Shown: positions 12,760 to 49,093 of the stretch, in pieces
How the letters are laid out: every line of letters begins with the position of its first letter
How positions within the stretch are numbered: the first letter of the stretch is position 1
From: Blastocatellia bacterium
GTDB lineage: Bacteria; Acidobacteriota; Blastocatellia; RBC074
Assembly: GCA_035652435.1 (NCBI GenBank)
Contig: DASRDU010000081.1
Location: 10,511 to 74,510 of the forward strand
DNA: 64,000 nucleotides
Reading direction: 5' to 3'
Position numbers and translations under genes: made by a program
The notes under the pieces: generated by a model
Seen by the model: the letters and a program-made list of their open reading frames with translations, nothing else
What the model was told of the DNA's origin: nothing
Database searches by the model: none

Positions 12760-12772
12760 AATCGGGCTGACA

Positions 12773-14888: not shown

Positions 14889-14900
14889 GGGAAAACAACC

Positions 14901-15719: not shown

Positions 15720-15768
15720 TGACGGGCCCGAGTGGCCCGCCACACTTCCTTTTACAGGAGACACGGGA

Positions 15769-16155
15769 ATGAGTGAGATGTCTTTACTGATCGTTGACGA
15801 TTCCTCGACCTTCAGGCAACTGCTCAGCATGAGTCTGGCCAAACTCGACGGGATCAGTGAGCAGAGCATCGTCCAGGCCGAGAACGGGGCCGAGGCGCTC
15901 GAGAAGGTGCGGACGGGCAACTTCAGCCTCGTCCTGACCGACATCAACATGCCGCAGATGACCGGACTCGAACTGGTTCAGAAAGTCCGCCAGGAGCTGA
16001 ACCGCGCCGACCTGCCGATCATCATCATCAGCACCAAGGGTTCGGAGGCCGAAGTCGAGCGGGGCATGCAGCTCGGCGCGAGCGGGTATTTGTCCAAGCC
16101 GATTTCAGTCAATCAGCTGCGCGACCTGGTGACCGGCTTCCTGAAAGATAAATAG
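15769..16155 (+). CDS. Single-domain response regulator (second CheY-like receiver)
   Basis: LLIVDDSSTFR, LVLTDINMPQMTGLELV, IIIISTKG, YLSKP. Confidence 0.88.
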   Translation: MSEMSLLIVDDSSTFRQLLSMSLAKLDGISEQSIVQAENGAEALEKVRTGNFSLVLTDINMPQMTGLELVQKVRQELNRADLPIIIISTKGSEAEVERGMQLGASGYLSKPISVNQLRDLVTGFLKDK

Positions 16156-16178
16156 CAGCGAAAGACCACAGAGGGGCT

Positions 16179-17264: not shown

Positions 17265-17714
17265 CGACCGGGGCGCGGCCGGACGCTGTCCGGCTCATTC
17301 CCGGCCATCGAGACGCTTCAGCCCGACGGGCAGGCTGAGGCAAAATCCCGGCCGCCGATGGAACAACAGAATGAGGGTTGCGGCCTGCGAGTCGCCGTGC
17401 GGCCTCTGCCGTGGAAACTCGCCACCAGGATTCCCTCTCATCTTCGGATTGCCTGGCGCACGCTACCCCTGCTTGAGGAGTATTCAGGCGCAATCATCCC
17501 CACCCGTAACATTCAGGGCGGCAGTCTTATCTCTTCGTCTGCGCCCGGTCAATCTTTCAGTGTCACAGTCAGTAAATGAGTTGCCCGGAAGCCGCGCCTC
17601 CACCATACTGTGCCCGGCGCCGTGAGCGGTGAGTTCCAGACTATCTTCCTGCATCTGATCCGATTCAGATCAATACCACGCAAAGCGTAAGTGTGCCGGA
17701 CAGGCGAACGAGGA

Positions 17715-17768
17715 TTTCGGAAAATTTCGTCGTTTGTTCGTTACTTCGCTGGCAGGCTTCTCTATAGT
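17715..17768 (+). promoter_or_regulatory. Copy 3 of the conserved ~35-bp element (TTTCGGAAAATTTCGTCGTTTGTTCGTTACTTCGC) followed by TATAGT
   Basis: TTCG half-sites start at 17716, 17726, 17737 and 17745 (spacing 10, 11, 8). TTACTT (17741-46), a 16-nt spacer, then TATAGT (17763-68). Lies 82 nt upstream of the giant-protein ATG at 17850. Confidence 0.6.
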
Positions 17769-17849
17769 TTTGCCCGTCACCGAACGAAATCCGATGGAAC
17801 CGATCCACCAGTTCTGCCGGGAGCCACTTTCCCTGAGATGAGAGAGGTC

Positions 17850-20800
17850 ATGAAGAAATATCTGTTTGCCCCCCTTCAGACATTGATTACCGATTCTTTC
17901 TGCCGCTGCCTGATCGTGGCTGCGATTTTGCTCGCGGCAGCCTCATTCAGCCACAGTTCATCTTCCGCCTCGGCGCGCCCGGGCGACAACCCCATCCCGG
18001 TCACGACCGTCTCCGCGGCCAGCTATGAGACCGGGGCCATCGCACCCGGCGCGATTGTCGCCTCGTTCGGCACGCTGCTGGCCACGCGCCTTGAGGTCGC
18101 GAGCAGCCTGCCGCTGCCGACCACGCTGGCGGGGACGACGGTCAGGATTAAAGACAGCGCCGGAGTCGAACGGCCGGCGCCGCTCTTCTTCGTCTCCGCG
18201 GGGCAGATCAACCTGGTGGTTCCAGTGGACACGGCCACCGGCACGGCGACGGTGACCGTGCGATCCGAGGACGGCACGGCCTCGACCGGGACGATGGAAG
18301 TCAAACCGGTCGGGATCTCGGTCTTCACAGCCAACTCGGACGGGCAGGGCGTCCCGGCGGCCTCCGCCCTGCGCATCAAGGCTGATGGCACACAGATTTT
18401 TGAAGAGATCTTGCAGTTTGACGCGACGCTCGGGCGCCGGCGGACGAAAGCGATTGATCTCGGGCCGGAGGCGGAACGCGTCTTCCTGATCCTTTACCTG
18501 ACCGGCATCCGCCGCGCGCCCGACCCGAATGGTGATGGCAACAGTAATGAGTCGGTGCATCTGGTCGTCGGCGGCACTGAACTCGTTCCGGCTTACGCCG
18601 GGGCGCAGGGGATTTTCGCCGGGCTGGATCAGATCAATGCCGAAATCCCGCGCAGCCTGCTCGGGCGCGGGCGAATCAATCTCACCGTCACCGGGCCGGC
18701 TGCGTCCTCCAACCCCACGGAGATCGAGATCGGCCCACCGGCGGGCGGCGCGCGGCCCGTGGTGAGCAGTTTCAGCACCGGGACGGCGCTGGCCGGGCAG
18801 ACGCTCGGCATCAACGGCAGCGGCTTTGCTACGGCGGCGGCCGGCAATCTGGTGCGGATCGGCGGGAACGAGGCGCGCGTGACTGCAGCCGCGGCCACTC
18901 AGCTTTCAGTCATCATCCCCTTCGGCGCGGAGAGCGGCCCGGTCAGCGTGCGGACGGGGCAGGGCGAGGGGATGAGCGCGGGCGCGCTCGCCGTGCGGAC
19001 TTCGATCAGCGGAGTCGTCGAAAATACCGCGCGCCAGCCGATGCCCGGAATCGGGGTGAAAGTGACCGGGACCGCCATCACCGCCACGTCCAATAACGAA
19101 GGCACTTTTATTCTCCCCGACGTTCCGGCGGGGGCCGCCATTGTCGAGATTGACGGGACGAACCTTGGCGTAGTGCCGCCGTACCCGAAGGTCACCCTCA
19201 AGACAATCGTGAATGCTCAGCGCGATAATCCCTTTCAGCGCCCGATTGCGATCCAGCAGGCCATCGGGCCGGGACTCCTCGTGGGATCGCCCGGCGACTC
19301 ACCGGAAAAACCCGGCTCCCCGGAACAGCCTTCACGCGTCGAGGCCACGAGCGGACTCGTGCGGTCCGGCAGCGTCATCTTCGAAGTCCCTGACAATGCT
19401 AAAGCGGTCTTCCCCGGCGGCGCGACCAGCGGCGTTGTGACCCTCACCATCGTCGAGAACAGCCGGACGCCCGCGCCATTACCATCAGGTCAGTTCAGTT
19501 CGACGATTGTCCAGCTCACCCCGTTCGGTGTGAAGCTGACCCCCGGCGGTAAACTGACTTTCCCGAACAGCGACGGCTATCCGGCAGGCACGCAGGCGAA
19601 GCTTTTCCGCTTCGACCAGACTCCCGGCTCGCCGACCATCGGCAGCTTCATTGAAGCCGGGACGGCCGCCGTCTCGGGCGACGGGCAGCGGATTGAAACA
19701 TCCGCCGGGGCGATCACTGAAACCAGCTACTACTTCGCTTCAATCCCGCGCCAGACGACTACCGTGGCGGGGCGCGTCGTGGACAGCGACGGCGCGACGC
19801 CGGTGCGGCTGGCATTCGTGCGCGTGCGCGGGCAGGAGACATTCACCGACGGCAACGGCGGATTCACTCTGCGCAACGTGCCGTTGAATTCGGCGAATGA
19901 GGGCATCACGGTTGAGGCGAGCTTCGTGCGGCCGGGTGGCCGGGTGGACCGCGTCCAGCGGAGCGGCGTCCCGGTCGTCATAAACGGACTGACGAAGGTC
20001 ACGCCCGATCTGGTGCTGACGGCGCCGAGCAGCAACCGCCCGCCCGTCATCCTCGCCCCATCAAGCGCCGTCGTCACGCGGGGCGAGACGCGCGACTTCA
20101 AAATCGTCATTAGTGACCCCGACGGTGATCAGACGGGGCAGGTGACGACGAGTGGCGCATCGTTCGCAGTCGTCAGCAGCGTGGCTCCGTCCGGCACTTA
20201 CAACCTGCGACTCACGCCCGGCGCGAATGACGCGGGCAATTACAACCTGGGCATCAACGTGGCGGACAGCCTCGGCGCGAACACGACGCAATTCATCGCC
20301 GTCAGGGTCAATCGTGCGCCCGTCGCGAGCGCGCAGACAGTGAGCCTTGGCGCGGGCGCGCCCAAAGCGATTACGCTTGCGGCGAGCGACCAGGACGGTG
20401 ACCCGTTGCAATTCATCATCACGGGCAATCCGACAGGCGGCGTTCTGAGTGGCACCGCGCCCAACCTCATCTACACCCCGAACCCAGGTTTCAGCGGCGG
20501 CGACAGCTTCACTTTCAAGGTCAATGACAACGTGATTGACAGCGGCGCGGCGACCGTCACGATCAACGTCACGGCGCCGGGCACGGTGCTGCGCACGCTC
20601 GTCCATCACCAGATCACTTCGTTCGCGGGCAATTTCAACACCGGCACCGGCCAGGCCCCGGTTCTGAGCGCCAACGGCAATCGCGCCGTCTACGCCATGG
20701 CGCCGGGGACGGAGGACCCGGCCAATCCCAACCGCATCTTCGTCATCAACGCCGACGGCACGGGCGTGCAGCAGGTGGACTCCTACACCACGCTCTGCTT

Positions 20801-22817
20801 CTGCGGATCGCAGGTGGACATCAGCGCCGACGGCTCGAAGGTGATCTCCACCGAGGGCCTGCAACTGCGCATCGCCAACGCCGACGGCAGCGGCGCGCTG
20901 GAGTTGATCAGGAACGTGGAGATCGCCACCATCCGCATCGCGGGCGACGGCAGCAAAGTTTTCTTCCTCATCCGGCGCGACAGCGGGCCGAAAGAGCGCG
21001 GCCTGTATGTCATCAACGCTGACGGCAGCGGGCTCAGGCAGATCGTCGGGCCGAATCAGGTCGCGAGCCTGCTCAGTATCCCTGCCGGCGAAGTGTTTCC
21101 GTTCGCCAGCGATCTGGGGAACGACCTCGGAGTTTCCAGCGACGGCTCGCGCATTGTGTTTGCGACCTATTCGCGGGGGCAGCGGATGTTCGGCGTCAAC
21201 CCGGACGGCACGGGGCTGCACCAGATCATCGGCCCGATTGATTTCGTGAGGACGACCGGCATCAGCGCCGACGGCTCGAAGGTGCTTTACAGGCTGAACA
21301 GCTTCGCGACCGGCCTCGACGAAGTCGGCGTCATCAACTTCGATGGCACCGCGCAGCGCAAGCTGGCGGATAACGACATCAACGGCCCGACGCGCTACCT
21401 GGGTGAATCCGGCGACCGGTATTCTCTGAGCGCCGACGGCTCCCGGCTGCTGGCCGGTTCATCAGGCATCGTGTTCGACACGGCGACCGGGGTGATGCTG
21501 CAACTCTCGGCGCGGTTCGGGGGCTTCGGCCTCCTCTACAATTCACTCTACCTCGCGACGATGAACAGCACGGCGACGCGCTTTCTCTTTGCCTTCGGTG
21601 ATGCCAGCGGCATTAACCAGCTGGTGTCGCTCGACGTCAATCCCGCCAGCCTCGGCGCGGCGCCCAGCCTGACGGCGCCCGCGATTGATCCGCTCTTCGT
21701 CCTGACCAATGGCGGGTCGGGGGCCACCGTCACGGCCAGAATGACGACCACCAACACGCTGCTCCTGATGGAATACGTCTTCCTCCGCGGCGGGCTGTTT
21801 GATCGCGACAGCAGCTTCAACGCGCTCTATGACGACGGACTCACGGCCGGGGATGCGAAGTCAGGCGATGGCGTCTTTACGAGCAACACGGTCAGCACCA
21901 ACTGCTGCACCGTCGTCGGCCCGCGCACGGCGCGCCTCAATGCAATGGTGCGGACGGCCGACGGCCGATTGCACGCGACGAGCGTTGATTTCGCGCCGTT
22001 CTTCGTCCTCGCGCAGGCGCCCGGCCCGACGGCGCCCGCGATCACCTCGCTCGCGCCGCCGAACGGCGCGCCGGGCGCGCAGGTCACGATCAACGGCAGC
22101 GGCTTCGACCCGACCGCCGCAGGTAACGTCGTCCTCTTCGGCAACCGCGTGGCACAGGTCGCGAGCGCCAACGCCGGGGGCACTCAGTTAGTGGTGACGG
22201 TCCCGGCTGATGTGGCCGTGGGCACGGTCGCCGTGACTGTTTCGGCAAGCGGGCGGACGAGCAACGCCGTGAATTTCACCGTGCCGAGCTTCAACCTGCT
22301 GCGCAACGGCGACGCCGAGCAAGGGACGCTTTCGACGACCGGCCTTGAGATCGTGCCGATCCCCGGGTGGACGACGACTTCAAATTTCACCGCGCCGGTC
22401 TACGGTCTGGCCGGTTGTATGTCGTCGGCTGAAGGGCTGCGCGTCGGCGGCGGCAGGGGTTATTTCGTGGGCGGCCCCGGCAACACGATGTCAACAGCCA
22501 CGCAGACGGTGGACGTATCGAGCGCCGCTACGCAGATTGATGCGGGGCAGGGAAGCGTTACTCTACAAGGGCAACTGGCCGGCGTGCAGACCGACACTGG
22601 CACGGTGCGGGCCGAATTCCTGAACGGCAACAGCGTCGTCATCGGCTCCTTCTCACTCGGCCCGGTGACCGGCACCGCTCACACTTTCCAGTTTAAGACG
22701 GCGACCAGCGGCGTCCCGGCGGGCACGCGCTCGATTCGCGTGACGCTGATCTCGACGGGCGGCAACAGCAATTACAACGAAGGCTATTTCGAGAATCTGT
22801 TTCTCGGTCTGAATTGA
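17850..22817 (+). CDS. Giant secreted multidomain surface protein G1 (~1655 aa): N-terminal TIGR03437-like module, IPT/TIG, CarboxypepD_reg-like, cadherin/Ig-like, PD40/TolB-like propeller, IPT/TIG, lectin-like C-terminus
   Basis: The track ORF opens at a GTG at 17691. The ATG at 17850 follows GAGAGG and gives the signal peptide MKKYLFAPL...[13 protein letters not shown]. Domain calls are from motif recall (see sub-features). Confidence 0.9.
   Translation: [1655 protein letters not shown]
17997..18698 (+). other. TIGR03437-like module located at the N-terminus of G1
   Basis: [21 protein letters not shown]...[39 protein letters not shown]...[14 protein letters not shown]...[32 protein letters not shown] aligns by eye with the C-terminal modules of G2 and G3. 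Confidence 0.75.
20585..22010 (+). other. PD40/TolB-like propeller plus cap module shared with the N-terminus of G2
   Basis: [97 protein letters not shown] parallels G2 residues [92 protein letters not shown]. Confidence 0.75.
22285..22814 (+). other. C-terminal jelly-roll, lectin-like domain of G1 (resembles the FBA/Fbs1 sugar-binding fold)
   Basis: [11 protein letters not shown]...IPGW...YFVGG...QTVDVS...IDAG...GTRSIRVTL...[10 protein letters not shown] recalls the NLLRNPCGEE...GW...Q.IDL pattern of FBA domains. Assigned by eye only. Confidence 0.4.
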
Positions 22818-22831
22818 GACAAGCCGGTGGT

Positions 22832-25195
22832 TTACCGGTTCGTGATCCGCGCCTTCGCGGCGATCACTTCAGGGATGTCCTGGTCGGCGTCTTTCCAGAT
22901 TTGCAGGAAGCGTTCGTATGCGGCCTGCGCCCTGTCGCGTTCGCCCTTGCGCTCGTAAGCCTGGCCGAGGTGGTACTGCGCCAGTGGATAGTTCGGATTG
23001 AGGCGCAGGATGCGCTCGTATTCGGCGACGGCCTCGTCCGTCCGGCCCAGTTCCAGATACGCATTGGCCAGACAGTCTTCGTACGAGTCAATGTCCCATT
23101 CGACGGGCCGCTCGCGCAACGCCTCGCGGAAATGATTGAGAGCCTCTTCGGCGCGCCCCTGCCTGAGCGACAGATAGCCGCGCTGATAATTCCAGATGCG
23201 CAGAAAGCCGCGTTCCCGAAGGTGGTTGTAACTGGCCGGCATGAAAACTGTCTCGCTCAGTTTTTGCGCGGCGGCTTGGTCGTCGCGCGCGAGGGCGAGG
23301 GTGAGCGAAGTCCATAACGACGATGGAAGGTATTTCACTTCCTGACCGATGGCGGCGGCAGCACGTTGCAGGTCACCCTGCTTCAGCCAGACCCGGGCTA
23401 TGGAGTTGAAGCTGCGGGCGCGCTGATTATTATCACGCGCGATCTGCAGGTAGCGCTGGTACTGCCCGACGGCCGCGCGATAGCGGCCCTGCTGAAAATA
23501 AAGGTTGCCGAGGTGGATGATCGCGATTCTGGATTCAGGGTTGAGCGCGAGGGCCCGGCCATACGCGGCAAGGGCCTGGTCGTATTGCCCCAGCCACTGG
23601 TGGAACAGGGCCAGACTGTCCCAGGCATTCGGGTCGTTGGGCGTCAGTTGAATGTAGCGTTGATAAGCCGCCAGCGCTTCTTCATTGCGCCCGAGGCGCA
23701 TGCAGACGCTGCCGAGCGCGTTGTAGATGTCTTTCGCTTCGGGGTCGGTGACCAGCCCCTGCCGGATCGCCTGTAACGCCTCCTCATTCCTGTCCTGCGC
23801 CTGCAGCATCCAGTTCAGCTGCTGCCAGGCCTCGGTTTCCAGCGGGTAGCGGGCCAGCAGCTCGCGATAAATTTCGCCGGCGCGCGCCGGGTCATGGTCG
23901 GCCTGGGCCCGCCAGGCGACGATGAAGAGCTTGTCCCGTTCATTCAAACGTTCAGACAGCCGGAACGCCTTCTCCAGATATGGGAGGGCCTTTTCGCCCG
24001 AGCCAACCTTCGCGGCGTAAATGTAGCCGACGCGCGCATACGCCATCGCAAACTGCGGGTCGAGGGCGATGGCCTTTTCCAGCAGCGCAATCGCCTCGTC
24101 GAACTGAAACATCTGCGTCTGTTCGAGCGCCAGCGAGTAGTAGCGGTACGCGTCCAGATTGTCCGTCATCGCCGCGGCCAGCCCGCGCTCCTCGTCCCGC
24201 CCCGCGAAGTCCGCGCCCAGGTGCGAGGCCAGTTTGAGCGAGAGTGAATCAATCTCTGTCAGGATCAGCTCCGGGCGCTCGACGACCAGCGCCTCGGCGG
24301 CTTCGATCTGCCCGGTGCGCGCCTCGTGCAGCGTGACGTCAATCCGCACCTCGTGCCCGAGCCGGGCGAAGCGGCCCAGGATCAGCACCTCCGCCTGCGC
24401 GCGCCGCCCCACTTCCAGCCCGTCCTCCAGCCGGAGCTGCGCCGCGTCCCGGTAGCCGATGTGATCGAGCAGCGCCGCCAGCTGCTGCCGACTGAGCAGC
24501 GTCAGGCGCGGCGAGCGCGAGAGGTTGGTGATCAACATATCGGCGAGGCCCTCGCGCAGCCAGTCCAGCTCGCGGTCGCCCGACTGATTCTCGAAATAGA
24601 GTACCGCCACCGCCCGCCTGCCCGGCACGTGCGGCAGGGCGACTTCCGCCGCCGCCGGCCGGCGCCTGCTGAAATGGAAGGCCAGGAGTGCGGTGAGCGC
24701 CACCAGACCGATCCCCAGCACGGCCAGCCACACGAGGGGAGGCCGGCGCCAGGTTCGTCGCGTCGTGAGCGCCGGCGGGGCGGCCGGCTGATCCGGCTGA
24801 TGAAATTCCTCGGTAAACTCGACCTGGACGGAGGTGATCTCCTCGACCTCGTATGCACCGTGCGGCAGAGACTCTTCGACCGGCCCGATGAAACGATAAC
24901 CGGCTTTCGGGACGGTCCTGATGAAGCGCGGCTGGCGCGAATCGTCGCCGAGCAGCCGGCGCAGCTCGACGATGATCTGCACCAGCGCGTCGGGCGTGAC
25001 CGCCGCCCCTCCCCAGACGTTTTCGATCAGTTCCTCTTTCGTGACCAGCTGCCCGCGGCGGTCGAGCAGGTAGAGCAGCACCTGCAGGCTCTTCTGCCGC
25101 AGCGCCAGTTCCTCGCCGTCGCGCCGGAGCGAGCCGCGCGCCGGGTCAACCTCAATGCCCGCGACACGATAAATTGGCCTGTCGAGAATCTGCAT
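22832..25195 (-). CDS. Membrane-anchored ToxR/CadC-like transcriptional regulator R1: wHTH (trans_reg_C), single TM, TolB_N-like domain, TPR array
   Basis: wHTH motifs [29 protein letters not shown]...[12 protein letters not shown]; [24 protein letters not shown]; [28 protein letters not shown]; multiple TPRs. The track ORF opens at a TTG at 25222. The ATG at 25195 matches the N-terminus of the paralog. Confidence 0.88.
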
Positions 25196-25224
25196 GACTC
25201 TGTCCCGGAACGTGGGCGGCAAAG

Positions 25225-25260
25225 TTTCGGAAAAATATCGTGACTTTGTCGTTACTTCCG
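25225..25260 (+). promoter_or_regulatory. Copy 1 of the conserved ~35-bp element (TTTCGGAAAAATATCGTGACTTTGTCGTTACTTCCG)
   Basis: Half-sites TTCG 25226, ATCG 25237, GTCG 25248, TTCC 25256 (spacing 11, 11, 8). Lies 30 nt from the R1 ATG. A TATAGCAC box sits 176 nt further on, at 25436-25443, 27 nt before the small-ORF ATG. Confidence 0.55.
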
Positions 25261-25469
25261 CCCGCCGCCGATGAGAGAAAGGGTCCGTCAGTAACAGCCA
25301 GCATCCGAATGATTGTTTGATCGGAAGGTTTTCGTTTTCCCTTCATTAACTCCAGCCCGCGTTTTGTGCGAGGACAAAACCGGGTCAGGAAAGACCAGTC
25401 GGGATCGAACCGGAGTGCCGCAATCGCGGCGGGAGTATAGCACGGCCGCCGTGCGGAACAGGAGACCGG

Positions 25470-25718
25470 ATGAAGCGAACCCGGAAAGTAACGATCACCA
25501 CCACGCGCCGCCGCACGCTGCGCGTCCAGCCCGCCATCCGCGCGCGCTGCCCGGTCTGTCAGCACGAGGTCGAGACGCTGGCCACTGCTCACGCCGCCGA
25601 AGTTCTGGAAATTGATGCTGAGACACTCAACCGGCTGGTTGCCGCCGGCCGGGTTCACGCCATCGAAACCGTGAGCGGCAGCTTTCGGGTCTGTCAGGAG
25701 TCGCTCTTTTCAAAGTAG
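25470..25718 (+). CDS. Small conserved protein S1 (82 aa): Arg-rich N-terminus, CxxCxH...C motif, excisionase/MerR-like HTH; function unknown
   Basis: By my hand alignment, 53 of 82 positions are identical to the 37617-37865 ORF, and the conserved block differs mainly at synonymous third positions. GGAG lies upstream of the ATG. Its stop is 9 nt before the G2 ATG, and the G2 AGGAGG overlaps S1's stop codon and last sense codon. Confidence 0.65.
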   Translation: MKRTRKVTITTTRRRTLRVQPAIRARCPVCQHEVETLATAHAAEVLEIDAETLNRLVAAGRVHAIETVSGSFRVCQESLFSK

Positions 25719-25727
25719 GAGGTGGAA

Positions 25728-34700: not shown

Positions 34701-35093
34701 TTCACCGCCAACTCGGACGGGCAGGGCGCCCCGGCAGCTTACGTGATCCGCGTGAGGGCCGATAACTCGCAGAGCATCGAAGCGGTCGCGCGCTTTGATG
34801 CCGTGCAGAGCAAATTCCTCCCCGCGCCGCTCGACCTCGGCCCCCCGAGCGATCAGATCTTTCTGGTGCTGTTCGGGACCGGCGTTCGGTTCCGCAGTTC
34901 GCTCCCGGCCGTGAGTGCGAAGATCGGCGGGGTTGACGCGCGGGTTGATTACGCGGGGCAGCAGGGCGGATTTGTCGGCCTCGATCAGCTCAACGTATTC
35001 GTGCCGCGTGCTCTGGCCGGGCGCGGCGAAGTGGACATTGCACTGACGGTGGACGGGAGGACTGCCAACACTGTGAAGGTCAATATCAAATGA
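25728..35093 (+). CDS. Giant secreted multidomain protein G2 (~3121 aa): PD40 propeller module, choice-of-anchor-D-like, IPT/TIG, 7 BACON-like repeats, Asp-box (BNR/sortilin-like) propeller, PPC, cohesin-dockerin-cohesin, C-terminal TIGR03437 module
   Basis: ATG at 25728 lies 5 nt after AGGAGG. Signal peptide [22 protein letters not shown]. The track ORF opens 6 nt upstream at a GTG. Domain motifs are listed in the sub-features. Confidence 0.92.
25911..27375 (+). other. PD40/TolB-like propeller plus cap module (paralogous to G1 20585-22010)
   Basis: See the G1 sub-feature. The blocks are collinear and conserved by eye. Confidence 0.75.
27385..27692 (+). other. Choice-of-anchor-D / ASH-like Ig domain
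   Basis: [38 protein letters not shown]...[34 protein letters not shown] second copy is at about 30835-31100. Confidence 0.6.
28290..28545 (+). repeat. BACON-like repeat unit 1 (~84 aa)
   Basis: [84 protein letters not shown]. Confidence 0.75.
28873..30818 (+). other. Asp-box (BNR) sortilin/VPS10-like beta-propeller region
   Basis: I counted 11 S/T-x-D-x-G-x-x-W type motifs, e.g. [50 protein letters not shown]. Confidence 0.8.
31115..31889 (+). repeat. Three tandem BACON-like repeat units (units 2-4)
   Basis: Each unit starts C(T/V)F(T)(I/L)SP..Q.F.A.GG.GS and ends AGQTF(T/V)V. The period is about 255 nt. Confidence 0.8.
31902..32258 (+). other. Pre-peptidase C-terminal (PPC)-like domain
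   Basis: [67 protein letters not shown]...[10 protein letters not shown]. Confidence 0.6.
32265..33040 (+). repeat. Three tandem BACON-like repeat units (units 5-7)
   Basis: Same unit as 31115-31889. Units 3 and 6 share a 51-nt stretch with a single mismatch (31376-31426 versus 32526-32576). Confidence 0.8.
33054..33420 (+). other. Cohesin-like domain 1
   Basis: [48 protein letters not shown]...[31 protein letters not shown]. Confidence 0.65.
33621..33785 (+). other. Dockerin-like duplicated segment
   Basis: Two related segments: [20 protein letters not shown] and [23 protein letters not shown], with Ca-loop-like D/N-rich starts. Confidence 0.6.
33984..34325 (+). other. Cohesin-like domain 2
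   Basis: [46 protein letters not shown]...[30 protein letters not shown]. Confidence 0.65.
34377..35090 (+). other. C-terminal TIGR03437-like module of G2
   Basis: [25 protein letters not shown]...[39 protein letters not shown]...[16 protein letters not shown]...[47 protein letters not shown]. Confidence 0.8.
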
Positions 35094-35147
35094 GTGACCA
35101 GGGGCGTGGCCGCAGGGGTGAACGCAGAACGGATGGCCGTCCCTGAT

Positions 35148-37511
35148 CTATGATGGGTCAGTCAGTCTGGCTTTCGCCGCGATCACTTCCGGGATGTCCG
35201 GATCAGCATCCTGCCAGATTTCGAGGAAGCTGCGGTAAGCGGCCCGCGCCCGCTCGCGCTCACCTTTGCGCTCGTAAGCCTGGCCGAGATGATAGTGGGC
35301 GAGCGGGTAGTTCGGATTGGTTTTCAGGATGCGTTCATATTCGGCGCCGGCTTCGTCCACGCGCCCCAGTTCGAGATACGCATTCGCCAGACAATCCTCA
35401 AACGAATCAATGTTCCATTCGGCGGCGCGGTACTGCAAGGCGGTGCGGAAATGATTGAGCGCGTCCTCCCCGCGCCCCTGCTGCAAGGCCGCCGTGCCCT
35501 GCTGGTACTCCCAAATGCGCAGCTTGCCGCGTTCCTGATAAACCTCATAGGTTGCGGGGGCAAAGACTTCCGCGCTCAGTTTCACCACGGCAGCCTGATC
35601 GCGTTGCCGGAGCGCCAGGGCGAGCGAATTCCATAACGAGCCCGGGTTGTATCTGACTTCCGCCTGCGCCGCGGCGGTGGCGCGAGCCACATCGCCCCGC
35701 TTCAAATACAACCAGGCCAGGCAGTCGAAGCCGCGCGCGCGCGCGCCGTCATCGCGGGCAATCTGGATGAAACGCTGATACTGTTCCGCCGCCGCGCGAT
35801 ACCGCCCCTGCTGAAAGCGCAGATGGCCCAGATGAATGACCGCCACACCCGATTCGGGGTTGAGCGCGAGCGCGCGGTTATAGGCCGCTTCAGCCTCGGC
35901 GTATTGCCCGCTCCAGCGATGGAATTCCGCCAGACTGTCCCACGCATTCGGATCGTTCGGCGCAAGCTGGATGTAATGTTGAAAGGCTGCCAGCGCCTCA
36001 TCATTCCGCCCCAGCCGCATGCAAACTGAGCCGAGCGCGTTGTGCAGGTCTTTCCACTCCGGGTCAGTGAGCAGCCCCTGCCGGATGGCCCGCAAGGCTT
36101 CTTCATTTCGATTCTGCGTCTGCAACACCCAGCTCAGCCGCTGCCAGGCTTCGGTCTCCAGGGGGTAACGCGCAAGCAGGTTACGATATACTTCAATGGC
36201 CCCCGCCGTGTCGCGGGCGGCAGTGGCGAGCCACGCAGCGATAAACAGCTTATCCTTTTCACTCAGACGACCGGCGAGCGTCAGAGCCTTTTCCAGATAC
36301 GGTCGGGCCTTTTCGCCCTGCCCCATGCGCACGGCGTACACATAGCCGATGCGTGCGTGCGCCAGCGCAAACTGCGGGTCGAGCGCCAGAGCTTTTTCGA
36401 GCAGCGCAATGGCTTCGTGAAACTGATACATCTGAGCCTGCTCGAGCGCCAGGGAGTAATAGCGGTACGCATCCAGATTACTCGTCATCACCGCCGCCAG
36501 CCCGCGGTGGGCGTCTGCGTCCGTCAGCGTCGCGCCCAGATGCGTGGCCAGCTTGAGCGAGAGCAAATCAATTTGCGTCAGGATTTGCGCGGGCGTATCC
36601 GCGACCAGCGATTCCGCCGCCTGCAATTGCCCCGTGTGCGCGTCGTGCAGCGTGACATCAATCCGCACCTTGTCGCCGAGCCGCGCAAAGCCGCCGAGGA
36701 TCATCATCTCGGCCTGCGCGCGCCGCGCGATCTCCAGGCCGTCTTCGAGTTTGATTTGTGCGGTATTCTGCCACCCCGTGTGACTGAGCAGGGCGGCCAG
36801 CTGCTGCCGGCTGAGCAGGGTCAGCCGCTGCGAACGCGAGAGGCTGACAATCAGCATGTCCGCTAACCCTTCGCGCAACCAGTCCAACTCGCGGTCGCCC
36901 GCCCGGTTTTCAAAATACAACACGGCCACACCCCTTTTGCCCGGCACGTGCGGCAGGCTGATTTCAGCGCGCGTGGCGCGGCGATAGAGGTAGCCGCCGA
37001 GCGGGACCAGAAGGGCCAGGGCAATCAGGGAAACAAGGAGGCGGGGAGACAAAGAGACGGGGAGGCGAGCCTGTTCTATCTGGCGCCCTGTCACCCCATC
37101 TCCAGATTGTCCCGGCTCGACAACTTCTTCATAGCCGATTTCGACCGATGTGAACTCTTCGACTTCCAGCGCGTGGCCGAGCTTTTCGACCTCGCCGATA
37201 AAACGGTAACCGGCCCTGGGAAAGGTTTTAATAAAGCGCGGCTGCTGGGAATCTTCGCCCAGCGCCTTACGAATCTCAACGATGCACTGTACCAGCGCGT
37301 CGTCTGTGACCGCCGCGCCCTGCCAGATTTGCTCCATCAGTTCTTCTTTGAGAATGAGGCGCGGGCGCTGTTCGATCAGGTAAAGCAGGACCTGGAGGGA
37401 TCTGGGACGCAGGCAAAGCTCGTCGCCGTTCCGCTTGACCTGGCCGCTGAGCGGGTCAAGCTCAGCCCCGGCTAAGCGGTAAATCAGCTTGTCCGCCCCC
37501 TTGTTCATCAC
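35148..37511 (-). CDS. Membrane-anchored ToxR/CadC-like regulator R2 (paralog of R1): wHTH, TM, TolB_N-like domain, TPR array
   Basis: Collinear with R1 along its whole length, e.g. [36 protein letters not shown] versus [36 protein letters not shown]. The first codon at 37511 is GTG; an ATG follows at 37508. Confidence 0.88.
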
Positions 37512-37532
37512 AAATCGTTTGTTCCCGGCAAA

Positions 37533-37590
37533 ATTCGGAGAAATTCGTCGCGCGTTCGTTACTTCCGGCGCGGGTGCGCCGGATTATAGC
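37533..37590 (+). promoter_or_regulatory. Copy 2 of the conserved ~35-bp element (ATTCGGAGAAATTCGTCGCGCGTTCGTTACTTCCG) followed by TATAGCAC
   Basis: Half-sites TTCG 37534, 37544, 37555 and TTCC 37563 (spacing 10, 11, 8). TATAGC at 37585-90 lies 27 nt before the small-ORF ATG. Aligns to copy 3 without gaps, with about 27 of 35 positions identical. Confidence 0.6.
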
Positions 37591-37616
37591 ACCTCGTAAG
37601 GAGAGGACTAAGCCCG

Positions 37617-37865
37617 ATGAAAGTGACGCGCCGTCTGAAAATCACTGTCACCCGGCGCCGCATACTGCGTTCGGCGGTGGCGCCCGTGCGAGCCTTTTGT
37701 CCGGTTTGCGCGCACGCGGTCGAGACGCTCAGCGCGGCGCAGGCCGCCGAGGTGCTGGAAATTGACGGCCAGGCATTGGCCGGCCTGATCGCTGCCGGGC
37801 GCGTGCATGCAATTGCACTGGTGAGCGGCAGCCAGCGGGTCTGTCAGGAATCGTTGTTTGCTTAG
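37617..37865 (+). CDS. Small conserved protein S2 (82 aa), paralog of S1
   Basis: [19 protein letters not shown]...[64 protein letters not shown] lies upstream of the ATG. Confidence 0.65.
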
Positions 37866-37900
37866 CCGAAGTTCAATTCATTCCCCGGAGGAAATCAGTC

Positions 37901-40900
37901 ATGCGCAGAAAATCAATGATGGTCGTGCTGCTGCTGGCGCTCGGCCTGGTCTGGATGCTGCCCATTGAGTGGCGGGCGCTGAGTCTGGGAAAAGCGCAGG
38001 CGTCCACCCTCGGCCGGGCGGCAGCCGGCGCCGGCTGCCAGCAGGGGCAACGCGTCACCGTCCAACTCCGCAGCAGTAGTTATTCGACCAGCATCCAGGG
38101 TAATTCGATTTTCGGCGACGGGGGCTGCCCCACCGGCTCCGCGAGTGGGAGTCCCAACACGCCCACGGTCACTGCGCCTTTCGCTTATGAATGCAAGGAA
38201 GAAAAACTCAGCGGGCAGGCGGTCGTAACTTTTCCCACCGGCGTACTCGCCGGCACGCTGGACGGCAACGGCGACCTCGTCCTCGATACATCCGTGAGAT
38301 TCACCGGCAGAGTCGAGATCACGGGCGAGATCAGCCGCAACATCGGGGGAAGCAACCAGCGCACCCTCGAACTGAGCAGCTTTTACTGTCCTGCGATGCG
38401 CGACAACAAACAAATCTCGCTTGTACCTGCGGTCTGGTCGGCCAGTTACGATTGCAGTCTGAACAAATTGAACCGCCTGTCGAATGGTTCTTATGGCCTC
38501 TCCGGGCTACAGGTCAGGTATTCCGGCGGACGGTTGATCCTGGACTCAGGCATCAGCGCTGAATACGCGCCGGCCAATGCTTCGGGCACGATTACGCTCA
38601 ACTCCACGACGCTCGACTTCAACACCACAATCGGCACCAACCCGGCGGCGAAACCCGTGACGCTCAGCAATACCGGCAGCGGGGCCATGAATTGGCAGGC
38701 GGCGGCCACTACGACGAGCGGCGGCAATTGGCTGACGGTCACGCCGGACTCCGGTTCGCTCAACGCCGGGCAATCAGCGACACTGACGGCGACGGTCAAT
38801 GCGAGTGCGCTGGCGGCGGGGTCCTACAGCGGCTCGGTCACAGTCTCTTCAACCAACGCCAGCAACAGCCCGCGCACGGTGCCAGTCACGCTGACGGTCA
38901 CAGGCTGCGCCGCGGCACTGAGCCTCGGCGCAAACGCGCCGGAAGAACTTCAGGACACGCTCCAAATCGCGGATGCGCAGCCGGGCAATGGCACGCCCAT
39001 TTCAGGCGCGCTGCTCAAGCTCGGCGGCTTGAAAGTCACGGTGCGTTACCTGTTGCAAAGCCGCGACAGCGCCACGCTGGCCGTGCGCCTGTTCGACGAA
39101 GCGGGTAACCAGCGCGGGGACGCGGGCGAGCTTGGCATCGCTCGGCCTATGTCCTGTCCCAATCCGCTGCCCACGCGCGAATTCAACTTTTTGTCCGCCA
39201 GCATTGATTTCACGCCCAACGTCGGCGGTGACGTGCCGACCAGCGTGAAACTCTCGGTGTTGCTGCTCGATCCGGCGACAGGCAGCATTTTCAAACGTGC
39301 CGACCAGACGTACAAAGTCATCCCCGATGTCATCGCCTTTGAAAGCAATCCCACCATCAACGGGAAGGCCGCGCCCGACGCCAGCACGTTCCCTGAAGAT
39401 GGCAGGATCAGGTTCGACTGCGGGCTGCGCTATCACCTGACCAACGACGTGACTGGCAAATTACGGCTGGAAGCCTTTAACTTCACCGGCCAATCCATTG
39501 CGCGCAAGGACTTCGCCGCCACGGTCCCGACCTCCGCACAACCCCTCACGGTGGGCTTCCCGCTCGACTTTGAATTTACGGTGCCGCCCACGGTGTCGCA
39601 GATCACCATTGCGGCGTATTTGCTCGCTGAAAACGGGACGGTACTCAAAATCTCCGTGCCGCTGACCTATCGCAGCAGCGGCTTCGGCATTGCGCTTGGC
39701 ACGGAATCTCCCGCCACGTCACAATTTCTCCCGTTTGGCGACACGCCCACGCTCTCGTCGGGCAGGCCCACAAAAGACAGCTTACCTCTGCCTGGAGGCA
39801 AACGTCTGGCGCTTGGGGTGACGGAGGATTTGGTGAACTTCCCCCCGAATACTTTGGCGGGAATCCTCCTCTCGGCAAGAAGGGTGGATGGCACTTATCT
39901 CAGACAGAACCAGCTATTGGAGAAGCAGGCAGCCGGAAGGCTGCCCCGGCCTTACTATTTCGTCAACCTTCCCATCAAAGTGCCTGACGATGCGGATCAA
40001 TGGGAACTGAAGCTGGTGTTTTTTCCGCCCGGCAAAGACCCGCTCGTTTCAAAACCGCTGCTGCTGAACATAGACCGTGTGCGCATCGTGCCGAACGATT
40101 TCACGCCTGTCCGCAGGACTACTTTGGAGCGCGGCGACAAGCCCAAAACCTTCCGCTACAAGCTTGAATACAACGTCAACCGTCCTGGCGTGAGCAGATT
40201 GTTCGTCGAAATCACTTACAACGCGGTCCTTCCACCCGCTCCCACCAAATTGCTTGAACTGAAGGCGGGCGACCACAGCCCGGCGAATCCGTCCTTCAGA
40301 GAATTTGACGTATCCATTCCTACCAATACCGAGGTGAAATCATTGACTGTGAGTTTTTTTCTGGAGCCAGACCTGAAAGACAGTCTCCGCGCTTTCTCTG
40401 GTGAGAGTATCACATACAGCAACCTTTCCGAGGTAAAGCAAATCTCCGGGGGCGCCACGACAGTTCAGAGCAATCAGGGCGTCACCATGAATGGCGTGCA
40501 AAACCTTGCGGATCGCACATTCACACTGACGCGCCATGCCGCCCAGTTCAAAGGCGCTCTCGACACGTCCAGGCTGTCGCTGACCGAAGCTGAAACAACG
40601 GCTGACGACGCGCCCCATTTCGCATTGCGCTACCCGGAAGCCGCCTCGCTGTTGCGCGATTTCATCGGCGTCAATGCTTACTGGGAATTCAATCCGCCCA
40701 TCCCCGCCGACGGCAGCTTCGCCGCTGACCTGACGTTCAGCTATGACGCCGGAATGCTGCCCGACGATCCGAACTTCAGTGAAGCCGCGCTCAAGGTCGT
40801 CTCTTTCGATTCCGACACCGGGCAACTGGTCAGCTATCCGACTGCGGTCAACCTGGCCGCGAAGACCGCCACGGCGCGCGTCAACTCCCTCGCGCGCTAT

Positions 40901-42970
40901 TACACGCTCGGCGTCTTCGGCCCATTTGCGCAACGCAGCCTGAATTTCCCCGTGCTGCAAAGCAGCGACGATCTCACTACGCGCTTCAACCTGGTGAATG
41001 TGGGCACGGCGGACGCGGCGCTGAGCTTGCGCGCCTACGATGACGCGGGCGCGGATTTGCAGGCGCCCGGCCTGGTCAATCCGCTGCCCGCCACACTGCG
41101 CGCCGTGCGGCTGTTGACAGGTTCGGTCAGCGAGTTGTTCAAATCCACCGCGCCGCTCGCCGGCTGGGTGCAAACGCGCGCCAATCGCAACTTCGTCGCC
41201 GGGTATGAAATGCTCGGCAGCGGCAGCCGGCTCGACGGCCTCAACGCGCCGAGCGGTTACGACAGCGCGCTCATCCTGCCCGAAGCCGTCTGGGACGCGA
41301 CGCAAACGACCGAAGTGCATCTCGCCAACGCCACCAATTTCTCAGGCGTAGTCACGCTCGAATTGCACGACGCCACCGGACGACTGGCGCAGACGGCCGA
41401 AGTCACGCTCGCCCCCAAAGCCCGCTTCGCCGGGCGGCTGCAGGACATCTTCCAGGATCTCGCGCAGCCTTTCACCGGCTACCTGCTGATCCTGAGCGAG
41501 CGCGATCTGGCGGCGGCGGCGGTGCAAGTGTTGGAGAAAGAAATCACGGCACTCAACGCCCAGCCGCTCAACAGCGGCGCGACGAAACTTTTCGCGCCCC
41601 ACTTGCCGCTGGGCGGCCCGATTACGGCGCGGCTCACAGTGGTGAATCCGACGGGACAACCCGCCAGCCTGACGCTGCGGCTGGTAAACGAGCCGGGGGC
41701 GCCCACGACCGCGCCCGTCAATCTCACGCTGGGCGCGGGCCAGCAACTCCAGCGCAACTTCAGCCAGCTTTTCACTCCTGACTCGTCGCCGCTGAGCCGT
41801 TCCACGCTCGTGGTTCAAAGTGACGTGGCAGGGCTGGCGGGCAATGTGACGCTGCTGAATCCATCTGCCGCTATCCCTTTCCGCGCGGCGTTGCCGCTGG
41901 AAAGTGCGCCCGCCAACCTCCTGGTCTTCGCGCATCTCAATACCTCGGTCGGGTTTTTCACGGAACTGGGCATCTTCAATCCGTCGGCGCAACCGGCGCG
42001 CGTGACGCTCGCCTGCTTCAAACCGGACGGCACTGCGTTGGGGCAAACCAGCGTCAACGTACCGGCGGGCACGGTCTTCGGCGACTTCCTGGACAGCCTC
42101 GTGGGCGGCGCGCTCGGGCAAGTCGCAGGCTACTTCACGCTCAGTTCAGATCAACCCATCGTGGCGGGCGCAAGCTTCGGGACAGATGATGGCCAGATGC
42201 TCGCCGCGCTTCCGGGACAGGCTTTCGACCCGGCCGCGTTCACGCGCTCGGCGGTGACGGTTCTGGCGGCAAGTTATAAAGCCGACATCGCGCCCGAAGC
42301 CATCGTCGCCGCGTTCGGCAGCGGGCTGGCGACGAAAGTGGAAGTGGCCGCCGCCGTGCCGCTGCCGACGACGCTGGCGGGCACGACGGTCCGGGTCAGA
42401 GACAGCGCCGGAATCGAACGGCTGGCGCCGTTGTTTTTCGTCTCGGGCGGGCAGGTCAATTACCAGATCCCGCCGGGGACAGCGATCGGAACCGCGACGG
42501 TGACGATCACGAGTGGCGATGGAACTGTCTCGACCGGGGCGATGCAGATTAACGCGGTGGCTCCGGGATTATTCACCGCCGACTCAAGTGGAGGGGGCGT
42601 GGCTGCCGCCTATGCGGTGCGCGTCAAGCCCGGAGGCGCGCAGATTCTTGAGCAGGTCTACCGGTATGACTCGACGCTCAATCCGCCCCGCTTTGTGGCT
42701 GTCCCGCTTGATCCCGGTCCGTCCGGGGAGATAGTGGTGCTGGTGTTGTACGGGACCGGGATTCGCTTCCGCAGTGGTCTCGGGGCGGTGACGGCGATGA
42801 TCGGCGGGGTGAGTACTCAGGTGGATTACGCGGGGCCGGCGCCGGGGTTTGTGGGACTGGATCAGCTCAACCTGATCGTGCCGCGCTCTCTGGCCGGGCG
42901 CGGCGAAGTGGACGTGGTCGTGACCGTTGATGGAAAGGTCGCCAACACGGTCAGGGTGAATATCAGATAG
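37901..42970 (+). CDS. Giant secreted protein G3 (1689 aa): signal peptide, one BACON/Ig-like domain, ~1100 aa without motifs I recognise, C-terminal TIGR03437 module
   Basis: GGAGG lies 9 nt upstream of the ATG. Signal peptide [21 protein letters not shown]. The C-terminal 240 aa are collinear with the G2 C-terminus. Confidence 0.9.
38591..38905 (+). other. BACON/Ig-like domain in G3
   Basis: [97 protein letters not shown]. Confidence 0.55.
42253..42967 (+). other. C-terminal TIGR03437-like module of G3
   Basis: [24 protein letters not shown]...[39 protein letters not shown]...[47 protein letters not shown]. Confidence 0.8.
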
Positions 42971-43787: not shown

Positions 43788-45479
<1,692 letters not shown>

Positions 45480-45680
45480 AATCATCTCCCCTGCTTTCGG
45501 TCTGCCTGATCAGCAGCTCACTGCCGACCCGCATTCTGCCTCTCAATCATCCGCTGCGGATAAAGTTTCGGCGGCGCCGTCGTGGGGCCGAAGGTCATCA
45601 TGCCGAGGCACAGCTCGGAAACGAGTAATCCCATGTTGCCCAGTCTGGGGTGTCTCATCGGTTGTTTCCCCGGCAAATCA

Positions 45681-45754: not shown

Positions 45755-45782
45755 TTGTTTCCCTGGATCAGCCCTGACGCAT

Positions 45783-49090: not shown

Positions 49091-49093
49091 GAG

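Follow-up and report, generated by a model that had tools for sequence, protein, structure and literature searches.

A recurrent Acidobacteriota cassette of a predicted CadC/ToxR-like membrane regulator, an operator-like repeat element and a small protein, placed upstream of large secreted proteins

The one-component regulators CadC, ToxR and TcpP carry an N-terminal winged helix-turn-helix (wHTH) of the OmpR family without a receiver domain, a single transmembrane (TM) helix and an extracytoplasmic sensor, and their sites are tandem direct repeats beside the regulated promoter. ToxR and TcpP activate toxT, the gene of a soluble regulator. The pho box of the PhoB/OmpR family, bound by a phosphorylated response regulator, likewise consists of tandem 11-bp direct repeats, with conserved and A/T-rich blocks, that abut or replace the -35 region. 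Periplasmic partners of the ToxS/TcpH/VtrC kind have been described, and a VtrA/VtrC-ToxR/ToxS 'co-component' system is defined by a lipocalin-like periplasmic partner encoded directly downstream in the same operon (10.1101/2022.04.08.487670).

We analysed a 64-kb window (the whole stretch of DNA under study) from a soil Acidobacteriota genome, which encodes two regulators (R1, R2), two small proteins (S1, S2) and three giant proteins (G1 to G3). R shares with CadC, ToxR and TcpP the receiver-less wHTH, the single TM helix and the extracytoplasmic sensor, its topology being predicted, together with a putative site made of tandem direct repeats; the activation of toxT may have its parallel in R and S. 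R differs from them by its phylum, by its giant secreted targets, and by a sensor composed of a CsgG/TolB-like region and ~450 aa of TPRs, the CadC/ToxR periplasmic domain being absent. The cassette also lacks a ToxS/TcpH/VtrC-like periplasmic partner: the partner gene S is divergent from R and encodes an 82-aa protein without hydrophobic segment, predicted to be a cytoplasmic, zinc-type winged helix, which sets the pair apart from co-component systems. Family-model and literature searches found no family model and no published description of this arrangement, in agreement with an earlier sequence-only reading, which knew of no characterised system of this architecture.

Layout of the cassette and its cargo

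All seven open reading frames of the sequence-only reading were recovered in place by an ORF check of the window (Table 1; coordinates of G1, G2 and G3 assume likely ATG starts). Each unit pairs a regulator with divergently oriented targets. The proposed paralogy was borne out, R1 and R2 being 67% identical over 784 aa and S1 and S2 68% identical, and the 787-aa length of R1 is that of the same gene call in public assemblies. G2 starts 10 nt past the S1 stop.

Table 1. Coordinates of genes, element copies and promoter features in the 64-kb window
Feature	Position (nt)	Strand	Description
Element copy 1	17710..17748	+	before G1, without adjacent R or S; nhmmer 33.2 bits, pattern searches
TATAGT -10-like hexamer	17763..17768	+	16 nt past TTACTT of copy 1; read from sequence, tentative assignment
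G1	17850..22817	+	1655 aa, secreted; hydrophobic signal-like N-terminus
R1	22832..25195	-	787 aa; wHTH, TM segment, CsgG/TolB-like domain, TPRs
Element copy 2	25220..25260	+	~27 nt from R1 start codon; 36.7 bits
TATAGCAC conserved -10-like box	25436..25443	+	34 nt before S1 ATG
S1	25470..25718	+	82 aa; basic N-tail, CxxC...H...C winged helix (predicted)
G2	25728..35093	+	3121 aa, secreted; domain and signal-peptide analysis
R2	35148..37508	-	R1 paralogue
Element copy 3	37528..37566	+	20 nt from R2 start codon; 31.7 bits
TATAGCAC -10-like box	37585..37592	+	20 nt past TTACTT, 32 nt before S2 ATG
S2	37617..37865	+	82 aa; S1 paralogue
G3	37901..42970	+	1689 aa, secreted; domain and signal-peptide analysis

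As had been claimed, all three giant proteins carry TIGR03437 (141.1, 134.0 and 146.8 bits for G1, G2 and G3, vs a cutoff of 29.05). The family name (Soli_cterm) notwithstanding, G1 carries the module at its N-terminus (aa 107-347 of its longest ORF; nt 18009-18731); G2 (nt 34386-35090) and G3 (nt 42266-42967) carry it at the C-terminus. G1 further contains Big_9, TIG and CarboxypepD_reg domains, and G2 seven BACON domains, Sortilin/BNR, cohesin and PPC, while G3 has one BACON/Ig-like domain and is otherwise mostly orphan sequence. The BACON, Sortilin/BNR and cohesin assignments of the sequence-only reading were thus recovered, those of PD40 and dockerin were not (Pfam, E<=0.01), and the view that the bodies differ almost wholly was too strong, G1 and G2 sharing a block of ~500 aa at 44% identity beyond TIGR03437. 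To judge from domain names and signal peptides only, the G proteins may be glycan- or matrix-binding and located at the surface.

S and the element are not confined to this locus: the R-element-S layout was met again in soil metagenomes and in MAGs of Acidobacteriota and Blastocatellia, is syntenic across MAGs, and extends to S relatives of only 31-43% identity. In the cross-genome neighbourhood check that the sequence-only reading had proposed, 13 of 15 loci found independently had S next to a divergent R. S followed the element in 14 of the 24 copies with enough downstream sequence. TIGR03437 cargo was typical of close relatives only; in more distant cassettes the cargo is a Peptidase_A4, a sedolisin/Big_1/Calx-beta giant, a crystallin-like protein or a small lipoprotein. 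The gap between S and cargo is 9-70 nt in most loci and ~130-150 nt in two (L013 and L056), and the two genes are predicted to share one operon. Of the three-part cassette first envisaged, R, element and S are supported as a conserved, duplicating unit, in which S is often present but can be missing, as it is from several loci with R and element, and TIGR03437 is not a defining component. What is directly established is which domains the proteins contain, how the element is built of repeats, and that element, R, S and cargo keep a conserved adjacency and orientation.

The repeat element and the regulator R

A common element had been noted before G1, G2 and G3. It was found at all three places, and these are the only copies in the window, where an 11-nt core recovers all three; they agree at 25-28 of 33-35 aligned positions. 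A degenerate pattern, which recovered just two of the three window copies at 3 mismatches, had 0 matches in 100 shuffles. With a profile search the separation was clear, both in the window (32-37 bits for the copies vs ~7 bits for the next-best matches) and across loci (21-43 bits for real copies vs at most 12 bits for chance pattern matches). The element (consensus aaATtTCGGAAaAATTTCGTtttTnttTCGTTACTTc) is made of three tandem 11-bp direct repeats, wTTTCGK followed by A/T, and ends in TTACTT; it begins ~20-27 bp away from the start codon of R, which is read from the other strand. In an alignment of 39 sequences, each unit resolves into a conserved block of ~7 bp and an A/T-rich block of ~4 bp, and this anatomy, with an 11-bp period, is the layout of sites bound by OmpR/PhoB-family winged helices. 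The element thus has the 10-11 bp tandem direct repeats next to a -35 region that define OmpR/PhoB-type operators, and it looks like such an operator. It differs from the pho box by its three wTTTCGK repeats, by a putative binder predicted to be tethered to the membrane, where the pho box has a phosphorylated response regulator, and by a distance to the -10-like box that varies in many copies.

Among 40 distinct copies of the element, 38 had upstream sequence, and 32 of these directly adjoin an R start on the opposite strand, which is not the behaviour of a generic dispersed repeat. Twenty-eight of these copies came from a DNA-only, protein-blind metagenome scan, in which the element lay almost exclusively beside R genes. 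At the distant S/R locus L013, a different 11-bp repeat (TGAGAAC) occupies the same position.

The domain order of R is Trans_reg_C (60.0 bits in R1 and 51.1 in R2, vs a cutoff of 26.2), one hydrophobic segment by Kyte-Doolittle analysis (aa 160-186 in R1, 150-177 in R2), a CsgG-like region and many TPRs, in line with the wHTH, single TM, TolB-like and TPR build that had been proposed; relatives are labelled 'TolB-like' by JGI. The solved structures nearest to the wHTH are the DNA-binding domain of CadC (5ju7, E 3e-15) and ToxR (8b4b, E 3e-9). No receiver domain (Response_reg) was detected in R1 or R2 by domain-model search. The alignment to the CadC model NF007540 is confined to the wHTH region (aa 18-141 in R1, 24-114 in R2), and the C-terminal part matched CsgG-like and TPR models only, with no homology to the periplasmic sensors of ToxR or CadC. 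Residues ~150-640, covering the TM segment, the TolB/CsgG-like region and the first TPRs, align to TIGR04510, a 'putative peptide modification system cyclase' (E 3e-39 and 1.5e-43), with scores of 135 and 149 bits that stay far under the 400 bits of the family cutoff. This alignment points to one sensor module coupled to different outputs, a wHTH in R instead of a cyclase. From these features we infer that R is a CadC/ToxR-like, membrane-tethered one-component regulator of predicted topology, and the adjacency of operator-like repeats makes it their putative ligand.

Downstream of the repeats, nearly every S locus keeps a box gATTATAnC 25-35 nt ahead of S. A strict scan found no canonical sigma-70 promoter in any of the three intergenic regions, so that the TATAGT assignment before G1 is a tentative one. 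The spacing between repeats and gATTATAnC is 16-26 nt in short promoters but 60-480 nt where the promoter is long, too variable for simple class-II activation to apply to every copy. Should the element be mainly an alternative-sigma promoter, or a generic promoter motif of the clade, and not an R-specific operator, the empty sigma-70 scan, the closing -35-like TTACTT and a purine-rich box at a fixed distance downstream would all be accounted for. This is nevertheless very unlikely: the element is restricted to three promoters in 64 kb, the fetched loci have one copy per R/S promoter (the sole exception being L054, with a second copy between S and cargo), the cassette has no sigma factor gene, and a three-fold 11-bp repeat is not the signature of a sigma factor.

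The small protein S

S belongs to an unannotated family of 552 representative clusters (E<=1e-3). The CxxCxH motif first ascribed to it had to be replaced by CxxC...H...C across the family (C27, C30, H63 and C75, the last two invariant and the first two nearly so). In an AlphaFold2 model (mean pLDDT 81), Foldseek gave Xis, BldC, RacA and MerR N-terminal domains as best PDB matches (top matches 4j2n, 6ama and 6amk; probability 1.00, E ~1e-2, 44-46 aligned columns). Over residues ~37-80, the fit to Pukovnik Xis and to BldC (target-normalised TM-scores 0.7-0.77, rmsd 0.9-1.5 Å) places the predicted structure among Xis/BldC/MerR-N-type winged helices. The sequence signal is weak: HTH_17 (PF12728) scored 17.8 bits in S1, below the threshold of 27, did not match S2, and reached E<=0.01 in 18 of 61 family members (best 3.9e-5). 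The CxxC lies on a β-hairpin and, with H63 and C75, suggests a zinc site; we know of none in BldC or Xis. S is thus probably a soluble protein with a zinc-stabilised, Xis/BldC-like winged helix. It further differs from BldC and Xis by an additional arginine-rich N-tail (mean net charge +7), an acidic core (mean -2; 75% of members negative) and the lack of a link to an integrase.

The resemblance to Xis, the weak HTH_17/excisionase similarity and the name 'excisionase family' given to some relatives in databases would fit an excisionase, with the cassette being or deriving from a mobile element and the repeats serving as a recombination or attachment site. We regard this as highly improbable. 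Neither integrase nor transposase was found in the cassette region of the window, and a search of 50,697 phage and 72,556 plasmid records gave no S relative. The element lacks an inverted partner and always points the same way between R and S; the arrangement is, as seen above, syntenic across MAGs.

BldC-like proteins bind direct repeats, and S therefore stays a candidate binder of the element. Cooperative, head-to-tail binding by S would auto-activate the S-cargo operon as well as the elements without adjacent R (the G1 copy, L052, L040 and L046), leaving R to act elsewhere or indirectly. Matches of the S model to BldC-DNA complexes and Xis, and the position of S directly downstream of most copies, agree with this. 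We consider it unlikely, however, as the element is kept beside R where S is missing (L023/L036, L039, L044) and its ~7+4 bp anatomy with 11-bp period is typical of OmpR/PhoB-family sites. Moreover, the predicted recognition helix of R is nearly invariant among R proteins with the shared element, whereas the putative helix of S is variable. It has no conserved basic residues, which, together with the acidic core, weakens a classical DNA-binding role for S.

The contrast between basic tail and acidic core raises another possibility, namely that S targets R or RNA polymerase, not DNA. Its core could bind the R wHTH as a feedback modulator, or its arginine-rich tail could serve a processivity factor for genes of 5-9 kb, RNA-binding like λ N or polymerase-loading like AlpA; AlpA, of the HTH_17 type, is a known antiterminator, and S heads operons that mostly encode very long ORFs. 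For a processivity factor, one would not expect cargos as short as 377 aa (Peptidase_A4) or 333 aa (the crystallin-like protein), nor the absence of terminator-like structures between S and G or in the leader, nor an S1 leader whose folding is not significant (z = -1.09). Such targets for S thus seem improbable.

Proposed regulation and its meaning

On the reading that we favour, with a probability of about 60%, R binds to the three-repeat site, turns on the divergent S-cargo operon and probably controls its own gene as well; any role of S is speculative. An extracytoplasmic signal would be perceived by the ~600-aa CsgG/TolB-like and TPR part of R and relayed through the TM helix to the cytoplasmic winged helix; R would occupy the three repeats head-to-tail, next to TTACTT acting as a -35-like hexamer, and switch on the rightward promoter. 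The resulting transcript would in most cases encode S first, then the large secreted protein. Autoregulation would follow from the position of the site, which lies over the promoter or 5' UTR of R itself. Our preferred guess is that S, co-produced with the cargo, diffuses as a second-tier factor and reinforces the membrane-bound signal or relays it, for instance to R-less copies such as that of G1; S would then come after R much as ToxT comes after ToxR/TcpP. The R-less elements elsewhere, one of which (L052) precedes a TIGR03437 gene, fit regulation of G1 in trans. Since R1, R2 and the G1 promoter all have essentially the same operator, cross-talk between cassettes would be expected unless tethering confers a preference in cis.

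A bolder proposal, which we hold as tentative and rather doubtful, is that S represents a new class of zinc-stabilised, arginine-tailed winged helices, obligate co-transcribed partners of tethered ToxR-like regulators, which pass the signal on to distant promoters or, through RNA polymerase or RNA, allow the genes of giant secreted proteins to be fully expressed. R, operator and S would then form a phylum-wide, duplicating 'plug-in' expression module. If this is true, the module would be the Acidobacteriota counterpart of the ECF sigma/anti-sigma pairs or hybrid two-component systems that serve the polysaccharide utilisation loci of Bacteroidota.

Gene content of the duplicated cassette

The ORF map and translations bore out all seven genes claimed by the sequence-only reading: the paralogous ToxR/CadC-like membrane regulators R1 and R2, the paralogous 82-aa proteins S1 and S2, and the giant secreted proteins G1 to G3. 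R1 and R2 share 67% identity from end to end, S1 and S2 share 68%, and the DNA of the two units is 74% identical across 1.8 kb of R. The two R-S-G units are a tandem duplication.

Features of the window (positions in nucleotides)
Feature	Position	Strand	Detected by
Element copy before G1	17710-17748		Pattern and profile searches
Element copy before S1	25220-25260		Pattern and profile searches
Element copy before S2	37528-37566		Pattern and profile searches
G1	17850-22817 from likely ATG; longest ORF from 17691	+	ORF map, translations
R1	22832-25195	-	ORF map, translations
S1	25470-25718	+	ORF map, translations
G2	25728-35093	+	ORF map, translations
R2	35148-37508	-	ORF map, translations
S2	37617-37865	+	ORF map, translations
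G3	37901-42970	+	ORF map, translations
Chemotaxis-like cluster	5590-17264	+	
497-aa ORF	14457-15950	-	
RND efflux operon and TetR regulator	43788-51242	-	
DUF3857 protein, first	51607-53586	+	
DUF3857 protein, second	53613-55592	+	
KAP-TIR protein	58614-61211	-	

The TIGR03437 module (NCBIfam 'Solibacter uncharacterized C-terminal domain') is present in all three giants as proposed, with scores of 141 (G1), 134 (G2) and 147 bits (G3) against an NCBIfam cutoff of 29, and the G proteins are members of this family. It lies at the N-terminus of G1 and at the C-terminus of G2 and of G3, with pairwise identities of 51-62%. A PDB sequence search with the module gave no match. Its structure model, built from a 3-sequence alignment and of low confidence (pLDDT 63), gave generic filamin-like or Ig-like matches; it supports only the description 'tandem β-sandwich'.

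Outside this module the giants had been described as almost wholly different. The sole similarity found there is a block of ~500 aa common to G1 (aa 964-1444) and G2 (aa 62-554), at 44% identity, and the bodies are therefore not wholly unrelated. Pfam domains are Big_9, TIG and CarboxypepD_reg in G1; seven BACON, Sortilin/BNR, HYDIN-type Ig, cohesin and PPC in G2; and one BACON/Ig-like domain with little else in G3. PD40 and dockerin, also announced for the giants, were not detected (Pfam, E≤0.01). Each G protein begins with a hydrophobic, signal-like segment, and export is predicted.

A chemotaxis-like cluster ends ~450 nt before the G1 element. Its genes encode a 1314-aa MCP (dCache, HAMP, multiple PAS domains) and, after it, CheW, CheR, CheA, CheB, two receiver proteins, a GAP-free GAF protein and a DUF4388 protein. 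The 497-aa minus-strand ORF has no Pfam match and overlaps GAF and receiver genes of the plus strand; it is unlikely to be a true gene. On the other side, the cassette region is bounded by an RND efflux operon (OEP, AcrB-like, HlyD-like) with its TetR regulator. Further downstream lie tandem 659-aa paralogues with DUF3857, the second of which adds a transglutaminase core, and an 865-aa protein pairing a KAP-family P-loop NTPase with a TIR domain at its C-terminus, a combination suggestive of anti-phage defence.

The regulator R and the three-repeat element

Both R proteins match Trans_reg_C and many TPR models in Pfam, a CsgG-like region being borderline (23.4 and 20.7 bits against a cutoff of 20.8). 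The nearest solved structures to the winged helix-turn-helix are the CadC DNA-binding domain (5ju7, E 3e-15) and ToxR (8b4b, E 3e-9). Each protein has one hydrophobic segment (aa 160-186 in R1, 150-177 in R2), and from this single TM segment the sensor is predicted to be extracytoplasmic. R has the architecture of ToxR/CadC-type regulators, but its sensor domain is unlike theirs, and a periplasmic partner of the ToxS/VtrC kind, as that family is defined in 10.1101/2022.04.08.487670, is absent. The stretch from the TM segment to the TPRs is similar to the sensor portion of TIGR04510, with scores well under the cutoff of that family. Annotated relatives of R come mostly from Acidobacteriota and Blastocatellia MAGs, under the generic public names 'winged helix-turn-helix domain-containing protein', 'TolB-like protein' or 'tetratricopeptide repeat protein'.

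As read earlier from the sequence, the same cis element precedes G1, S1/G2 and S2/G3, and these three copies are the only ones in the 64-kb window. They scored 32-37 bits in a profile search of the window, the next-best site reaching ~7 bits. The 11-nt core of the element matches all three copies; a degenerate pattern, with 0.00 matches expected in shuffles, found two of the three at 3 mismatches. The consensus drawn from 39 distinct aligned copies (window and other loci) is aaATtTCGGAAaAATTTCGTtttTnttTCGTTACTTc. It is made of three tandem 11-bp units, wTTTCGK plus ~4 bases that are mostly A or T, and its third unit continues into TTACTT. Its start lies ~20-27 nt from the start codon of R, on the opposite strand.

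The loci used for comparison are mostly short metagenomic contigs. With the DNA-only pattern TCGGRRRN{1,2}WWTCGTN7TCGTTACTT, 37 metagenome contigs were matched. Seven of them (four distinct sequences) were discarded as chance matches, with profile scores ≤12 bits and no R; the others carry real copies. The pooled set comprises 40 distinct copies, 38 with upstream sequence, and in 32 of these 38 an R start is immediately adjacent on the other strand. The six copies with no adjacent R gene are the G1 copy and those of L026, L040, L046, L052 and L054b, the L052 element lying directly before a TIGR03437 gene. The element is not a generic dispersed repeat, one of the outcomes that would have refuted the sequence-only reading: it is a promoter-proximal site linked to R gene starts.

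Downstream, an S gene follows 14 of the 24 DNA-ascertained copies having enough sequence on that side, and R with the element but no S was found at L023/L036, L039 and L044. Locus L054, oriented with the element on the plus strand, has two copies (1926 and 2326): one separates R from S, the other separates S from the secreted-protein gene that comes next. At L013, a distant S/R pair has another 11-bp repeat, TGAGAAC, in 3-4 copies (~180-250), in place of TTTCGK.

A -10-like gATTATAnC is located 25-35 nt 5' of the S start codon. Its distance from TTACTT is 16-20 nt in short promoters (G1, S2, L007, L008, L049) and 60-480 nt in long ones, where a purine-rich box, tGAGAnAA or GGAGAGA, occurs ~13 nt past TTACTTC. 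None of the three element regions yielded a promoter in a strict sigma-70 scan, and promoter assignment is uncertain; a rival reading is that the element is itself a promoter used by an alternative sigma factor. The tandem 11-bp anatomy is among the features that speak for a regulator site instead. An RNA element in the leaders was rejected: the window had no Rfam match at gathering thresholds and no tRNA, and the S1 leader folded no better than shuffled sequences (z = -1.09). A scan for canonical terminators in the three element regions gave none that was significant. By eye, the leaders of five lower-GC relatives (L035, L039, L044, L050, L052) share a conserved GATTGCAA ~15 nt 3' of the -10-like ATTATAAC.

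The S family and its genomic context

No Pfam or NCBIfam family matched S at threshold, the closest being HTH_17 (17.8 bits against 27) and a weak BldC match. A word-indexed search returned 3 relatives, and an exhaustive profile search 552 representative clusters (50% identity) at E≤1e-3, 135 of them at E≤1e-10. Nearly all members are stand-alone proteins of 80-110 aa, and none of the clusters looked up for taxon came from a cultured organism. Close metagenomic relatives are found at L001-L003; more distant members share 31-43% identity with S1. A scan of genomes with a 4-sequence S alignment matched 5 genomes; the five MAG loci L004-L008 belong to GTDB representative genomes, all Acidobacteriota or Blastocatellia.

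The expectation that S would co-occur with R held at 13 of the 15 distinct S loci with upstream information, where a divergent Trans_reg_C/TPR regulator lies directly upstream; in the two others (L014, L056) S comes after a large gene of its own strand, the contigs being short. Locus L006, on the 9.5-Mb chromosome OY969418.1, repeats the order of the window, a G1-like gene with N-terminal TIGR03437 being followed by R, S and G. The secreted-protein gene after S, its cargo, is a TIGR03437 giant at L004, L006, L007, L008 and L019, and a fragmented G2-like gene at L010. Elsewhere it consists of two Peptidase_A4 genes (L013), a sedolisin/Big_1/Invasin/Calx-beta giant (P0246 locus), a Big_1/CarboxypepD_reg protein (L055) or a 333-aa crystallin-like protein (P0240 locus). 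At L008 a frameshifted S remnant recognised by eye (2434-2740; CPVC...AAVILEVE...CESAAIRSF) separates the promoter from the first giant gene, after which an intact S is found (8295-8531). The three-part cassette proposed by the sequence-only reading is real, with two amendments: S is an optional part, and TIGR03437 cargo is the usual one in closer relatives only.

Across 61 aligned members of the S family, H63 and C75 are invariant and C27, C30, T10, L46, S78 and L79 nearly so, which suggests a CxxC...H...C metal site. The AlphaFold2 model (pLDDT 81) has a β-hairpin bearing the CxxC, then a helix-turn-helix, a wing and a C-terminal helix. Its best PDB matches (probability 1.0, E ~1e-2, 44-46 aligned columns) are mycobacteriophage Pukovnik Xis, BldC-DNA complexes, RacA and MerR N-terminal domains. 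S lies below the HTH_17 threshold, yet is predicted to have the fold, which argues for a nucleic-acid-binding protein of Xis/BldC type. Among PDB sequences the S profile gave only weak matches, to ribosomal protein bS20 (E 0.002-0.3), and these were judged compositional. An excisionase or mobile-element remnant is effectively excluded by the conserved synteny and by the failure to find relatives in phage and plasmid collections.

The N-terminal ~25 residues of S have a mean net charge of +7, and the family tail carries a conserved KITxTRRR motif (alignment A2). The structured core, by contrast, averages -2, with 75% of members negative; such acidity is unusual in a DNA-binding helix-turn-helix. 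No basic residue is conserved on the putative recognition helix, and S has no hydrophobic segment. To judge by these charges, either nucleic acid is touched by the basic tail and not by the helix-turn-helix, or the core is a protein-binding surface.

Proposed regulation and its significance

R is likely the protein that binds the element, with a probability of roughly 0.6, because of the tandem-repeat anatomy, the keeping of the site where S is absent, and the parallel near-invariance of the 15-residue recognition-helix region of R across element-sharing loci. All three agree with established knowledge of winged helices of the OmpR/PhoB family, CadC and ToxR included. R would then activate the divergent S-cargo transcript, and probably also autoregulate, since the site must overlap R's own promoter or 5' UTR.

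The S gene is real, conserved and predicted to be co-transcribed. We favour S as a soluble relay or co-regulator, by analogy with ToxR/TcpP acting through ToxT. Two rival readings give it another role. S itself could bind the repeats, as its Xis/BldC-like fold might allow; the acidic core and the loci that keep the element without S speak against this reading. Alternatively, S may modulate R or RNA polymerase, a role to which a protein-binding core would be suited.

We found no family model or paper on the R-element-S arrangement, in agreement with the earlier statement that no characterised system is known to have this architecture. Literature searches returned no paper mentioning TIGR03437 and none combining Acidobacteria, ToxR-like and TPR, and the Solibacter genome paper treats paralogue expansion in general terms only. 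A membrane-tethered one-component regulator is of an already known kind; what is new here is its sensor, a defined candidate operator and a partner family.

Acidobacteriota rank with the most abundant bacteria of soils. To our knowledge, almost nothing is known of their gene regulation or of how they build large secreted proteins. The cassette supplies a concrete regulator, a 33-bp candidate operator and an unannotated partner family, all directly open to experiment design. One operator shared by paralogous cassettes raises a question of specificity for membrane-tethered regulators, between cis-tethering and cross-talk. Finally, the catalogue of small regulatory proteins gains, with S, an uncharacterised family of considerable size (552 clusters).
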